DNA of 64,000 nt, from NCBI GenBank assembly GCA_964016885.1, contig OZ024740.1, forward strand, positions 336,288,001 through 336,352,000, in the 5' to 3' direction. This document shows positions 5,232-58,107 of the stretch, piece by piece. Source of the DNA: Eledone cirrhosa (taxonomy: Eukaryota). The notes under the pieces are model-generated. The model saw nothing but the letters and a program-made list of their open reading frames with translations, did not search any database and was not told the origin of the DNA. Each line of letters opens with the position of its first letter. Position 1 is the stretch's first letter. The position numbers and the translations under genes were made by a program.

Positions 5232-5269
5232 CGAGGTGAGGATCCGCTAAGGTGAAACAATTGTTCTCG
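5232..5269 (+). ncRNA. Degenerate minimal type I hammerhead motif
   Basis: cgag-GTGAGGA-tccgctaaggt-GAAAC-aatt-GTT-ctcg. Stem I is cgag/ctcg and stem III is palindromic, but C3 is replaced by G. Confidence 0.55.
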
Positions 5270-5329
5270 GTATAGTGAACTAACTGCTGTGTAACTACTT
5301 CTATATATACACTTCTATATGTACATATA

Positions 5330-5464
5330 TAACAAAGGAATTGTGGTAAGGAGCCAGATGGACCATAACGCACCAGAGTACTCAATACTTAGGGTAGTAG
5401 AGTGGGAAATAGGAAAAAGTATGACCCCGACGGCAGAGCTCAAGCCGTTTCGACGGCTATTTCT
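5330..5464 (-). mobile_element. Second copy of the 2805-3033 module (hammerhead 3' half)
   Basis: Shares ccagagtactcaatact...cccgacggcagagctcaagccgtttcgacggctatttctg with 2850-2990. Confidence 0.65.
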
Positions 5465-5529
5465 GTACATATATGTATATATATATATATATATATATAT
5501 ATAGAGAGAGAGAGAGGGGGGGGGGGGGA

Positions 5530-5660
5530 TACGAGATTCTGTTCAGTTCTGTCTTCTAAATTCCACTCAAAAGACATTAGTTAAGCCACCCCTAAACTCT
5601 GCGCAATGATATCAAACCCGAAACCGTGTGGTTGTATAGAGATAATTTCATGACCATACG
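5530..5660 (-). mobile_element. tRNA-derived SINE fragment (family B)
   Basis: Reverse complement of the 22600-22740 sequence (caaccacacggtt...gtgagtggaatttag). Confidence 0.55.
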
Positions 5661-5825
5661 AATATTTCTACACCCATTAATTCCCTAATAATTATACTGT
5701 ACAAACTATATATATATATATATATATATATATATATATATATATATATATATATATATATATATATATATAGTGAAAGAGTGAAGAATAACATGGTTAA
5801 CAGTACAAACGGGTAAAAAGCAGTG

Positions 5826-6065
5826 TGGGAAAATTATTCAAGCACCGGCCAGAGTTACTCCCCTTGCTCTGTGGCAAAAACAACCACGTGCTTGAACGAA
5901 GAATGAACTCTGATGTAAATTTAACCTTAAAACCCCTCCTGGGTCACGTACTAAACATTTTTTTGTTTTCTATGGCCTTGAGAAGCCCTTTTTGGACGAA
6001 ACGTACGTAGGTGCATTTTTATATAAACATGTTTTAACGCTATATTCTCCTTTGTATTCATTCCA
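5826..6065 (+). mobile_element. Solo pLTR related to the 3' UTR of the 30660-32693 PLE
   Basis: Shares caccggccagagttac, tttaacc and the hammerhead motif with 32460-32690. Lies between (TA)n tracts. Confidence 0.7.
5974..6015 (+). ncRNA. Minimal type I hammerhead motif (UUGAGAA core)
   Basis: cc-TTGAGAA-gccc-ttttt-ggac-GAAAC-gtac-GTA-gg, with U3-A8 covariation and a palindromic stem III. Confidence 0.65.
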
Positions 6066-6084
6066 CTTATATATATATATATAT

Positions 6085-7016
6085 AAATATACATTTAACG
6101 AGAATCGCATTTCGGCAAGTAGAAATTAGCGAAACGCAACTTCCGAATTGTGTTGGCGAACGCTCAATAGATATGAATATACCAGAGCTATAAACATAAG
6201 TTTTAAAGGCCATACAAAACTAAGACGATGGTTAAGAAGCCATTAGCCACCTAAGCCAAAAAAGCGAACAAGCTAAGCGGGTGAAACAAAGTAAGATATG
6301 ATTGAAATATTTACCCGGACCCTCGGAAATGATGGCATGATCCGATATAGGGTTTCTGTGACACCTAAATACTGTCTGCTTATAAAAAATAATGAGCTTT
6401 TGGTATAATGATCGAACAAGGATATCACTTTCTCAACAGGCATTTTGTTCTGCGTGCGCCAGGATCCCACAGCGTTCGAAAGTACATGTGAAGTCCAAAG
6501 GGGAGAAAACCCATAGTTTTAGCAAATGAATTCAGTATGTGTACTCATTGCAACAATTTGCAAAAAAGGCACAAAACGAATTAAGCTCTCAACCGAGTAG
6601 TTTTTAAAATAAACTTAAGCGATTAAACAGTCAATAGAATTAACTAAAAAAATCAAAAAAATTAACTGGTTAATTGCTAGACTTGGGAGATTAATACAAA
6701 TATACATTTAGCGAGAATCGCATTTCGGCGAGTAGAAATTAGCGAAACGCAACTTCCGAATTGTGTTGGCGAGAGGTCAGTGGATTTGAATATACCAGAG
6801 CTATAAACATAAGTTAAAAAGGCCATACACAACTGAGACGATGGTTAAGAAGCCATTAACCACCTAAGCCAAAAAAGCGAGCAAGCTAAGCGGGTGAAAC
6901 AAAATAAGATATGATTGAAATATTTACCCGGCCCTCGGGGATGATGGTATAATCAGATATAGGGTTTCTGCGACACCTAAATCAATAATACTGTCTGTTT
7001 ATAAAAAATAATGAGC
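6085..7016 (-). mobile_element. Non-coding partial-tandem (pLTR/retrozyme-like) element with ~613 bp period
   Basis: Direct repeats 6085-6397 and 6698-7016, (TA)n on both sides, and an internal hammerhead motif. Confidence 0.75.
6312..6442 (-). ncRNA. Type I hammerhead with extended stems II and III
   Basis: tgcctg-TTGAGAA-a-gtgatatc...ggtgtcac-a-GAAACCCT...AGGGTC-cgggta. All three stems pair. Confidence 0.75.
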
Positions 7017-55309: not shown

Positions 55310-55426
55310 CGCATGCTCCGAAGATCTGACTGGTTATAATTCTGTATTGGCGATCGAGTGACGCAAAATTAGGCGGATAGCGATCTCTAGACATACCAGT
55401 TCAGTGAAACAAATGTAAGCTATGTG
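55310..55426 (+). ncRNA. Type I hammerhead with CCGAAGA core and ~80 nt stem II
   Basis: cgcatgct-CCGAAGA-t-ctgactgg...ccagttcag-t-GAAAC-aaat-GTA-agctatgtg. Predicted cleavage after 55417. Confidence 0.75.
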
Positions 55427-55646
55427 ATTAAAAACTTTTTTGTATAGCAAACCATGTAAACCTTCTTTCCTGATTTATTATTACTCCAAGTGTTTACAAC
55501 ATAGGAATTACAGCATACCCGCAGCATCACTATGAAAACGCCTTGTTGAGTCAAACCAAGCCAAGCGTTAATATCATCCACTACCTGGAATACCATAACT
55601 GGACTTCACCTAAGTGGACTGCATTTAACTATTATTTGTTAATCCG

Positions 55647-56063
55647 TATATATATATATATATATATATATATATATATATATATATATATATATATATA
55701 TATACTATATATATATATATATACTATATATATATACTATATATATATACTATATATATATATATACTATATATATATACTATATATATATATACTATAT
55801 ATATATATATATATATATACTATATATATATACTATATATATATATATACTATATATATATATATATATATATATACTATATATATATATATATATATAT
55901 ATATATATATATAGTAATAATAATAAATATATACTATATATATATAGTAATAATAATAAATATATACTATATATATATAGTAATAATAATAAATATATAC
56001 TATATATATATAGTAATAATAATAAATATATACTATATATATATATATAGTAATAATAATAAA
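55647..56063. repeat. C-interrupted (TA)n followed by five ~31-37 bp units agtaataataataaat(atatac)(ta)n
   Basis: Direct inspection. Confidence 0.9.
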
Positions 56064-56280
56064 TTTCAAGACTAAAATCCAAAGAGGGCTCGATAAGGAT
56101 AAATATATATCAAATATATAAGAACCGTAGAGCAAATATTTATTAAAATAAAAGATTAAAGTTTAAACAAAGAACCGCTGCTTTCACCCTGAACGGGATC
56201 TTCTGAAACTAACAAAGTCAATCTGTGAACGCAGAAGTGAATATTTCAAAAAACGTTGGATATTATAATAATAATAATAA

Positions 56281-56468
56281 TAATTGTTTCTACTTTTGGC
56301 ACAAGGCCAGCAATTACCCTAGTACATTACTGGTACTTTATTTTATCGACCCCGTAAGGATGAAAGGCAAAGTTAACCTCGGCGGGATTTGAACTCAGAC
56401 CGTAAAGGGACGTAACTATGCTGGAAAGCATGGCGTCCGACTCTCTACCGATACTGCCAATCCTCCAC
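56281..56468 (-). mobile_element. Family-A SINE
   Basis: Nearly identical to 35028-35212. Confidence 0.85.
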
Positions 56469-56511
56469 TTTTATAATAATAATAATAATAATAATAATAA
56501 TAATAATACAC

Positions 56512-57522
56512 ATTTCAGAAGTCCCATTTACTGCTGAAATGGAAAACACAGAAAAAGCAAAGCTGGTAAAAGTAATTGCAAAGAAAGAACTGCTACAGAA
56601 ACTGGCTAAGAAATGGCAAGAAAAGCCTCTGTATGGAAAATACCCAGAACGAGCTAACAATCCTGATGTTGACAAAACTTTAACCCATCAGTGGTTGGCA
56701 TCCTCTGGACTGAAATCGGAGACTGAAGGACTGATTATATCAGCACAAGATCAGTGTCTGCCAACCAAAAATTACCAAGACAACATAATAAAAAATGGAT
56801 GCAGCCCAGTATGCCGTGTATGTAAAAAACAACCAGAGACCATTGACCATATAATTTCAATGTGCAGTCCTATAGCTCCAACCGAATACCTAAACAGGCA
56901 TGACAGAGCTGCACAATACATACATTGGATAATGTGTAAGCATTTTGACCTGCCCCATCAAAAGAATTGGTGGGAGCATCAACCACCTCCAAAAATTGAA
57001 AAAGATCACATCTCAATCTTGTGGAACTTTAGCATCTAAACAGACCGAAAAATAGATGCAAATAGACCTGATATAATATTGAAGGACTTTAAAAAGAGGG
57101 TATGCCTGCTAATTGATATGTCCGTTCCAATAGACAAGAATGTATCTATAAAAACATTTGAAAAATTGAGCAAGTATAAGGACCTGGAGATAGAAATTGG
57201 AAAAATGTGGAAATTGAGAACTAAAACAATACCAGTGGTTGTAGGCGCTCTAGGAATGATACCTAAGGGGTCTAATGATTACTTATCGCAAATCCCAGGA
57301 AACCCGCGTATAGGAGAAATACAAAAGATAGTACTAATGGGAACTGCCCATATACTAAGGAAGATTCTGTCAATATAAGTACATCACAAGTCTAAACACT
57401 AAAGATGCATGTGTGAGTATGTATGTTCTTTCTTGAACATGGCGGACCTTGTTGTCTCTTGGGGTCACTGGTTGTGACTTGGTGATAACTCGTATGAACA
57501 TAAAGCAAGATAAATGCAGCTG
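56512..57522 (+). mobile_element. 5'-truncated copy of the R4/Dong-like element inside (TAA)n
   Basis: Near-identical to the reverse complement of 13604-14615. Nonsense TAA at 57037; (TAA)n on both sides. Confidence 0.93.
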
Positions 57523-58028
57523 TAATAATAATAATAATAATAATAATAATAATAATAATAATAATAATAGGACGTTTTGTTATGTCTTCATTACGTTTAT
57601 TGAGTAGTGACGCGCGTTTCGCTATTGATCAGCTCAGGATTCGATCTGTATCGATCTAGCCCGACTCTGGAATCGGACCTCTGGTGTGGTAATGAAGACA
57701 TAATAAATCGCCCTTGTATTATTATTATTACACTCTGCTTAGTTCTACACCTCTTTACAGACTGGAAACTACGCATCGAATGGTCACTCGGGTGACTCTA
57801 CAGTAACTCCACGTTACACGTTACACCCCCTATATATATATATATATATATATATATATATATATATATATATATATATATATATATATATATATATGTA
57901 TATATATATATGTATATATATATATATATATGTATATATATATATGTGTATATATATATATATATATATATATATATATATATATATATATATATATAAA
58001 TCAGTGATGCATTGGAACTCAATTTATT

Positions 58029-58107
58029 GTGTTACAATTGTTTCCCCGGCGAACAGCTCCGTGTGTGTGGATCTACCTGACTCTAGACTCGCAGGTTCCT
58101 CGGACAC
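58029..58107 (-). ncRNA. Type I hammerhead with CCGAGGA core and extended stem II
   Basis: gtgt-CCGAGGA-a-cctgcga...tcgccggg-GAAAC-aatt-GTA-acac-AATAAA, between TA tracts. Confidence 0.78.

Follow-up and report, generated by a model that had tools for sequence, protein, structure and literature searches.

The hammerhead motifs claimed for the 64-kb stretch of Eledone cirrhosa DNA analysed here, from now on referred to as the window, are largely real. We consider it probable that they represent the pseudo-LTR (pLTR) hammerheads of Penelope-like elements (PLEs) and truncated copies of these, mostly of the Hydra clade where a parent could be found. The copies that hold them are 5'-truncated or inverted and lie beside (TA)n, and the motifs are predicted to self-cleave, likely as dimers. 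Of 17 foldable type I motifs listed in an earlier note, 11 carry a C3/U3-N4-GA-N-G8/A8-A core, GAAA and UH together with stems I and II and are thus complete type I hammerheads, 5 have decayed but belong to families that possess a valid ribozyme, decay having been allowed for in that list, and 1 could not be confirmed.

The 11 complete motifs found by descriptor search compare with 0.2 ± 0.43 expected from 200 block-wise dinucleotide shuffles of the window (maximum 2, none of the 200 reaching 11), and a decoy core gave 0 matches; an earlier, narrower descriptor returned 9 motifs versus 0.34 ± 0.59 in shuffles. The descriptor was relaxed and tuned after inspection of the window and 40 genome stretches of 10 kb each (400 kb) therefore served as an independent test, yielding 30 complete motifs against 2.0 ± 1.5 in 50 shuffles and 3 matches to the decoy core (earlier descriptor: 31 versus 2.8, decoy 6). 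Motif density is thus not equal to that of shuffled sequence, as the earlier note had anticipated for a relaxed search. With the earlier descriptor, cores with a mismatched 3-8 pair were common in shuffles and nearly absent among real matches of the genome sample. By extrapolation, the genome holds about 2 × 10^5 (~200,000) motifs, with the window at about twice the average density (resampling P about 0.056). The supposition that a strict CUGANGA search would miss most motifs held in the window, where it found 3 of 11 and missed 8, but not in the 400-kb sample, where 25 of 30 were found and 5 missed. When the minimal descriptor in Fig. S7 of Cervera 2014 was re-implemented, it gave 0 matches in both the window and the 400-kb sample because of the lengths of stems II and III and, for the motif at 44213, because of its C4 core. 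An Rfam E-value scan of the window placed no hammerhead family among the best 150 of 236 matches, which were microsatellite-driven miRNA, snoRNA and similar artefacts. The many dissimilar families that had been proposed are confirmed: window motifs fall into about 15, and 214 matches form 29 clusters of at least two members with mutually dissimilar stems.

Three of the complete motifs have a canonical core. The first (21880..21922, minus strand; core 21915, predicted cut after 21887) has a 6-nt palindromic stem III and lies in a fold-back module, the second (34643..34687, minus; core 34684, predicted cut after 34646) has an odd palindrome of 7 nt and belongs to a young family with copies 99-100% identical, and the third (35722..35791, plus; core 35732, predicted cut after 35781) represents an abundant family with covarying stems. 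Three others carry a U3-A8 core: one with a long stem II and a full stem III at 6313..6441 (minus; core 6436, first listed at 6312; predicted cut after 6318), one at 30884..30923 (minus; core 30919, predicted cut after 30889) located 392 bp downstream of a fragmentary Hydra ORF, and its inverted copy at 32597..32636 (plus; core 32601, predicted cut after 32631). Core position 4 is C in the remaining 5 of 11. These are a 3' pLTR motif with a 94-nt stem II region (27892..28011, plus; core 27895, predicted cut after 28008), a minimal hammerhead (44210..44244, plus; core 44213, predicted cut after 44241), the motifs in the two arms of an inverted pair (50227..50344, minus, 81-nt stem II region, core 50335, predicted cut after 50236; 55309..55426, plus, core 55318, predicted cut after 55417) and one in the 3' fragment of a Hydra element, 144 bp long and bounded by TA (58029..58107, minus; core 58103, predicted cut after 58033).

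Among the decayed copies, the one in a 78-bp TA-bounded module (5231..5270, plus) has C3 changed to G, with a canonical core in relatives; the U3-A8 hammerhead at 5972..6014 (plus) has a stem II mismatch, and its module is 73% identical to the Hydra 3' UTR at 30848-31056. Position 4 and GAAA are altered at 33986..34067 (minus), whose family has a canonical core and full stem III. A short, 25-bp duplication has replaced the core at 36561..36600 (minus; relatives are canonical minimal hammerheads), and one base is inserted in the core at 44808..44918 (plus; the family has a canonical core and long stem II). The unconfirmed site, a low-copy relic at 19243..19310 (plus), has a core and GAAA but lacks a proximal stem I, and its relatives are just 2 and weak. 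Among the four half or decayed motifs listed earlier, three are true 3' halves, while no support was found for the one at 23594. Two of them belong to a Hydra PLE family referred to as family K: a 3' end at 2850..3035 (minus; listed at 2946) containing the 3' half of a U3-A8 hammerhead that begins in loop II as well as a fold-back arm (3004-3035), and a second copy at 5329..5468 (minus; listed at 5424) whose 3' half ribozyme is also truncated in loop II. The third (57606..57674, minus), likewise truncated in loop II, has a relative, L111, with a complete canonical motif. Two further 3' halves were absent from the first list. One (6918..7016, minus), truncated in loop II, belongs to the family of 6313..6441, and the other (about 24704-24769, minus) is contained in an inverted 5' arm of a Hydra element, an arm that starts within loop II (24575..24769, minus).

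For seven families, longer copies run into PLE ORFs, six of the Hydra clade and one, the 44213 family, linked to a DKG-type, non-Hydra ORF with reverse transcriptase (RT) and GIY-YIG domains. The Hydra link of the 33986 and 58103 families runs through one locus each; in the 33986 family, one longer copy lies downstream of a Hydra ORF fragment. Family K is also linked to a Hydra ORF. Within the window, kb-long PLE ORFs are flanked by five of the complete motifs. The window holds a frameshifted Hydra-clade RT and GIY-YIG ORF (24875..27403, plus) with RWK, DKT and CxCX5C, a linker and endonuclease fragment (31293..32162, minus) within the inverted pair 30827-31157/32363-32693, and an inverted pair formed by 5'-truncated copies of a 3.5-kb Hydra element that was recently active (50175..55646, consisting of 50175-52738, 52909-55478 and a tail). 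An intact 794-aa ORF of the 55318 family is located between two ribozymes 3505 bp apart; it gave no Pfam match. By motif reading, the ORFs show the Hydra diagnostics given in section 11 of PMC8557442, namely RWK, DKT, the CxCX5C linker, CxxC, CxH and, at the C terminus, a GIY-YIG domain without CCHH, and (TA)n insertion, a further characteristic of the clade, is observed as well. Assignment to Naiad was rejected because the endonuclease is C-terminal and Hydra motifs are present. No ORF link was found for the 34684 family in 3 long stretches, nor by tblastn of flanks with Hydra queries for those at 5232, 6436, 21915, 35732, 36561, 44808 and 57606.

The base at core position 4 differs between families and may be U, C or A. 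A U4C core (CCGANGA) is fixed in four families, which belong to two PLE types and one of which is recently active. Within the Hydra clade, C4 is fixed in three families and U3-A8 in two, and one nearby family has A4. U4C lowers hammerhead activity in vitro (PMC3088659), and the U4C-core motifs likely still allow some of the predicted self-cutting. In agreement with the palindromic stem III expected of PLE-type type I hammerheads, this stem is palindromic or nearly so in all but one of the 11 complete motifs (10 of 11); 6436, family K and the 33986 family possess a full stem III instead. Covariation of the stems among family copies is shown for one family: across 31 copies of the 35732 family, retrieved solely through their 3' flank, paired cells make up 93.2%, versus 89.5% when shuffled and 41-52% when slid. 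Double changes in the stems number 31 versus 11.3 in shuffles, and 0 of 500 shuffles reach these cell-level values. Pair-count and pair-type measures are not significant (117/500 and 355/500), and kinship inflates the other measures. Of the 9 monomers that were folded, not one exceeds its own shuffles in stability (z -0.96 to +1.12), and about 4 of the 9 adopt something other than the hammerhead as their fold of lowest energy. Computed duplex energies of the stem III palindromes range from -10.7 to +2.2 kcal/mol and are weak for the palindromes alone in the 44213 (+2.2 kcal/mol) and 55318 (-0.7 kcal/mol) families.

We hypothesize that a tandem pLTR-ORF-pLTR copy would be transcribed and that the two ribozymes of the tandem transcript would pair via their palindromic stem III, those of the three full-stem-III families being expected to fold singly. 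The ribozymes would then release a unit-length RNA, likely re-ligated to a circle, as in the dimer and circle model for PLE hammerheads (PMC4209133). The GIY-YIG nuclease of the element would nick (TA)n, and reverse transcription would prime downstream of the cut, at a site that ends in TA, cross the cut and usually stop early. Truncated insertions would keep the ribozyme because it is located near the 3' end of the element, and most single copies are likely passive debris. Insertion ends at the predicted cut are rare: family K has 1/30 and 1/62, and the 55318 family one or two such loci. Insertions cross the cut site and the template must therefore be uncleaved or re-ligated RNA, a pattern that fits circles and uncleaved RNA alike. 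A somewhat unlikely alternative assumes the same origin with ribozymes that are largely vestigial or dispensable, the template being uncleaved read-through RNA and U4C and A4 tolerated drift. The intact cut site within insertions, the variation of position 4 between families, the slow in vitro cleavage by PLE hammerheads and the spread of Naiad PLEs without canonical hammerheads (PMC8557442) would all fit this reading. Against it, dozens of diverged families maintain the other core positions, the 3-8 pair (C-G or U-A) and the stems, with compensatory changes, and the recently active 55318 family retains a 9-pair stem I and stem II.

The (TA)n context agrees with PLE insertion. Seventeen of 21 sites lie no more than 350 nt upstream of a TA run (background 34%), the nearest such run of the 35732 motif being its own stem III, and 14 of 21 lie in TA-bounded gaps of no more than 900 bp, compared with 31% of bases. 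The earlier description of nearly all motifs in 100-900 bp modules was therefore overstated, although the (TA)n association as such stands. A quite unlikely explanation of the short modules is that they are independent non-autonomous elements, either retrozymes or SINE-like pLTR derivatives, with short RNAs of their own. Vertebrate retrozymes descend from PLE pLTRs (10.64898/2026.07.22.740005), and the eight families lacking an ORF link may be non-autonomous. For the seven families with ORF-bearing parents, the swarm of non-autonomous or retrozyme-like elements proposed earlier does not hold. Retrozyme-like arrays are contradicted by the spacing of the motifs: no same-strand look-alike pairs 150-450 bp apart were found among complete motifs of the window and the 400 kb, the closest being 522 bp apart. 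Most of the short modules are copies shortened from the 5' side, their 3' ends being fixed. In the young 55318 family, 3' ends are at +61 or about +237 from the predicted cut, whereas 5' ends are scattered from -2 to beyond -1500.

A pattern that fits short RNAs is found in family K, where 23 of 30 copies fetched by their 3' end begin within a 15-nt zone of loop II and 32 of 62 incidental arms within a 20-nt zone, each with a different junction. This start zone suggests a defined short RNA template, and family K may propagate as such an RNA; however, its short copies are without a core and thus do not bear a ribozyme. A possibly cap-derived extra G at the start occurs in 14 of 46 non-native junctions, many of which are explained by the partner arm. 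General clustering of 5' ends in loop II was rejected, as it is strong in family K only: none was seen in the 55318 family, the core region is kept in 34 of 37 copies of the 35732 family, and the 5'-end sample of the 27895 family is confounded by subfamily divergence and SINE insertions. Two further proposals are tentative and, taken jointly, rather unlikely. The first is that a promoter in loop II of family K would give a short RNA containing the substrate half only, which would be retrotransposed as a fold-back and could be cut in trans by full-length copies; the second is that the ~2 × 10^5 motifs would constitute one of the largest ribozyme populations known, with position 4 re-fixed as C (four families, two PLE types) or A (others) and yet functional, even in an element that jumped recently. 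Extremely unlikely are chance matches in AT-rich, repeat-rich DNA: even with a relaxed and window-tuned descriptor, the failure of 19243 and 23594 and 6 decoy matches versus 2.7 in the first genome sample, the shuffles, the independent sample, the near absence of mismatched 3-8 cores and the covariation refute such an origin for the 11 complete motifs and likewise for the 5 decayed ones.

Hydra-clade PLEs, including Hydra-1_Obim, are known to insert in (TA)n and to carry hammerheads (Craig et al. 2021, PMC8557442). The elements described here share with them the C-terminal GIY-YIG domain, RWK, DKT, CxCX5C, (TA)n insertion and 3' hammerhead as well as partial tandems, inverted 5' arms and tails, while the unit length is 3.5 kb instead of generally under 3 kb. 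The U.U mismatch at 10.1-11.1 and odd palindromes are already contained in File S2 of PMC8557442. All 26 Hydra rows of that file have a CUGA core, which their descriptor demanded, and a loop II of no more than 10 nt, unlike the C4, U3-A8 and A4 cores, the stem II regions of up to about 100 nt and the full stem III of family K and the 33986 family found here. Minimal PLE hammerheads (PMC4209133; Lunse et al. 2017, as cited in reviews) are similar in being type I with a palindromic stem III and an extra base after A9, in the U3-A8 variant and in occurring mostly as solitary truncated-PLE copies of many families per genome; 4,000-9,000 motifs have been reported for coelacanth and Xenopus, compared with the estimated 2 × 10^5 here. 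The 6-8 nt palindromes and long stem II found here, in contrast to those hammerheads (PMC4209133), escape the published descriptor. No C4 family appears in the consulted passages of PMC4209133 and of reviews citing Lunse et al. 2017, and a C4 core fixed in PLE families was not found in the literature searched, though Lunse 2017 or Arkhipova 2017 may describe C4 cores. The same core change is known from a viroid U4C variant, reportedly weaker in vitro and sufficient in vivo (cited in Perreault et al. 2011, PMC3088659); that viroid variant is rare, whereas four transposon families belonging to two PLE types have the change fixed here. Animal non-LTR retrozymes likewise have type I hammerheads, a relation to PLEs and high copy numbers, up to 120,000 in the axolotl (PMC7229834; 10.64898/2026.07.22.740005). 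They are 150-450 bp tandem repeats, of which none were found here, the modules being 3' fragments of ORF-bearing elements. Copies starting inside loop II, insertion ends rarely at the predicted cut and ~2 × 10^5 motifs per genome were not found in the literature searched.

The association of hammerheads with TA-targeting PLEs was already known. Published minimal descriptors miss the motifs described here, and ribozyme counts in such genomes are therefore probably gross underestimates. The literature consulted describes the role of these hammerheads as unresolved, and this genome offers a ready test set, consisting of a recently active family whose ORF is intact and whose U4C core is fixed as well as dozens of families that vary naturally in core and stems.

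Our descriptor for type I hammerheads required the 3-8 pair, U or C at core position 4 and GAAA, together with a stem II region of at most 130 nt (flanking unpaired bases allowed), a palindromic or full stem III, UH and stem I. It identified 11 complete motifs in the window, compared with 0.2 ± 0.43 expected from 200 shuffles; an earlier version had found 9 versus 0.34. As the descriptor was tuned on the window, it was tested on separate genome stretches (40 × 10 kb at round coordinates on 13 large contigs), yielding 30 hits versus 2.0 ± 1.5 in shuffles and 3 with a decoy core. 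The excess over shuffled sequence that follows from the earlier note, which had claimed about 17 hammerheads plus half motifs, is found in both samples. All 11 complete motifs coincide with its sites, while 5232, 5974, 33986, 36561 and 44808 are decayed copies from families in which other members carry valid motifs. Its half motifs at 2946, 5424 and 57606 proved to be true 3′ halves; 23594 found no support and 19243 lacks the proximal stem I, its two relatives both being weak. Overall, the observation was largely right. The 19243–19310 sequence and loci L095 and L096 elsewhere in the genome represent a low-copy relic (three loci, 73–79% identity) that keeps a conserved core, a short stem II closed by an AT-rich loop, and a GAAA-like box; it could be either an ancient canonical hammerhead or some other structured RNA.

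Extrapolated from large contigs only, the genome would hold 2.1 × 10^5 complete motifs (bootstrap 1.0–3.4 × 10^5), window density being about twice the genome average (P about 0.056). For comparison, PMC4209133 gives 4,000–9,000 minimal motifs for the coelacanth and Xenopus genomes, and PMC7229834 as many as 120,000 retrozymes for the axolotl.

Stem covariation, expected among family copies if the motifs are real, was observed in the family named after the window motif 35732. With the query confined to the part 3′ of the cut, 37 copies were retrieved and 31 aligned, omitting three without core region, one with stem II deleted and two near-duplicates. Paired cells amounted to 93.2% versus 89.5% when shuffled and 41–52% when slid, and 31 double changes were found versus 11.3 in shuffles (0/500), relatedness inflating these cell counts; counts made at the level of pairs did not reach significance (117/500, 355/500). 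Two results count against the hammerhead reading: the stability of 9 folded monomers was not above shuffles, several favouring other folds, and no hammerhead appeared among the 150 of 236 Rfam matches listed for the window. Across 1.14 Mb of loci, a biased sample, 214 hits formed 29 clusters of at least two members with dissimilar stems.

The strict CUGANGA core occurs in 3 window motifs, C at position 4 (C4) in 5 and a U3-A8 pair in 3, versus 25, 2 and 3 of the 30 genome-sample motifs; the suggestion that a strict search would largely miss them holds for the window but not for the sample. C4 is the family state in four families, being found at 28/30 (58103), 20/20 (55318) and 20/20 (44213) loci retrieved with core-containing queries and, with a query lacking the core, at 17 of the 19 loci of the 27895 family having the core region. 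Because C4 makes a CpG, decay would go toward U, and C4 is therefore probably ancestral within each family. U3-A8 is in print for PLEs (PMC4209133). PMC3088659 cites U4C from a viroid, where the variant is described as weak in vitro and sufficient in vivo, and a U·U mismatch at 10.1-11.1 is also known from that paper. The Hydra rows of Craig File S2 (PMC8557442) differ in carrying CUGA in 26/26, although their descriptor demanded it. Our re-implementation of the published minimal descriptor detected no motif in either the window or the genome sample, and a term search of the main text of an octopus repeat annotation (PMC13282606) returned neither "hammerhead" nor "ribozyme". Since Lunse 2017 and Arkhipova 2017 are known to us only through citing papers (PMC6765202, PMC7761336), C4 can only provisionally be called new. 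Outside the window, some hammerhead-like families combine A at position 4 with a full stem III (L014:1276(+), L099:8227(−), the L126 cluster and L125); two loci place an A4 family downstream of Hydra ORFs, with its motif about 950 bp past the ORF end.

The window lies in a 3.0 Gb genome with many (TA)n runs and pieces of retrotransposons, which may resemble octopus repeats. A downstream TA run lies within 350 nt of 17/21 sites versus 34% background, gaps of at most 900 bp hold 14/21 sites, and ribozyme-bearing elements make up roughly a quarter of the window by coordinate sum. Alignment revealed Hydra-clade motifs, as described in PMC8557442, in the ORFs at 24875–27403, 31293–32162 and 51106–54541; (TA)n insertion and hammerheads of Hydra elements, one octopus family included, were already reported there (Craig et al. 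2021). The 50335/55318 family, with 40/40 of its best 40 matches at 100% identity, carries an intact 794-aa ORF flanked by two ribozyme motifs 3505 bp apart. Longer copies connect the 58103 and 33986 families (one locus each) and family K, which has window copies at 2946 and 5424 (many loci), to Hydra ORFs, and the 44213 family is connected to an ORF with DKG-type RT plus GIY-YIG. No ORF parent was linked for eight motif families. Judged by sequence, the carriers are of a known kind, namely PLE pseudo-LTR (pLTR) hammerheads, chiefly Hydra, with truncated copies, and self-cleavage is predicted. The very young family at 34598–34944 (−), whose best 40 matches are 99–100% identical and whose copies share some 1.2 kb, is a candidate non-autonomous element; an ORF parent was absent from three long stretches searched.

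Other repeats share the window. RT fragments at 1496–2578 (−), matching Pfam RVT_1 at 5.6e-6, seem to come from a PLE outside the Hydra clade; the descriptor found no hammerhead downstream of them. LINE-like elements at 9389–13342 (+) and 59881–62744 (+), 67% alike across 882 bp, have ORF1-like frames, AP endonuclease, RT and zf-RVT. A non-LTR retrotransposon at 13586–17452 (−) has its RT divided between two long frames and a partial 3′ copy, 97.8% identical and inverted, at 56507–57541; another LINE's RT fragment at 42983–44137 (−) is interrupted by TA runs. A SINE-like repeat, abundant and about 250 bp long (587–812, 8845–9084, 23768–24144, 27749–27872, 32910–33147, 35010–35259, 37318–37469, 56265–56507) is also inserted, at several loci, in the (ATT)n tract directly 3′ of the 27895-family ribozyme. 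No hammerhead was found in a dispersed repeat of about 690 bp with inverted pieces inside (28639–29328 and 58136–58824, 91% identical).

The proposal of a swarm of non-autonomous PLE or retrozyme-like elements was only partly right: eight families are unlinked, but others are ORF-linked. Retrozymes are defined as 150–450 bp tandems (PMC7229834; bioRxiv 10.64898/2026.07.22.740005), whereas no same-strand look-alike pairs at that spacing were found among complete motifs of the window and 400-kb sample. For the young 55318 family, 30 loci were retrieved by the 3′ part (one unmapped, some representing both arms of a single insertion). Counted from the predicted cut, most 3′ ends fall at +61 or near +237; the 5′ ends are spread out, from −2 to positions past −1500. 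Since insertions span the predicted cut, their template would have been uncleaved or re-ligated RNA; a circle model is found in Cervera and de la Peña 2014 (PMC4209133).

Intact copies of family K have a U3-A8 hammerhead whose stem III comprises five pairs (reference coordinates: core 358, cut 441/442). Among 30 copies retrieved by their 3′ end, the window's own counted, 23 start at 394–408, within loop II, and in 24 a fold-back arm runs to 463. A further 62 incidental arms include 32 with their start at 390–410 and one that begins at the cut. Junctions vary from locus to locus, and the insertion events therefore look independent, which suggests that the copies trace to a defined RNA 5′ end. 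The start zone contains a putative initiator-like word. Alternatively, the loop II starts may stem from stalling or from cutting by a nuclease. Family-fixed C4 cores, motif abundance and the family K loop II start are modest, testable additions.
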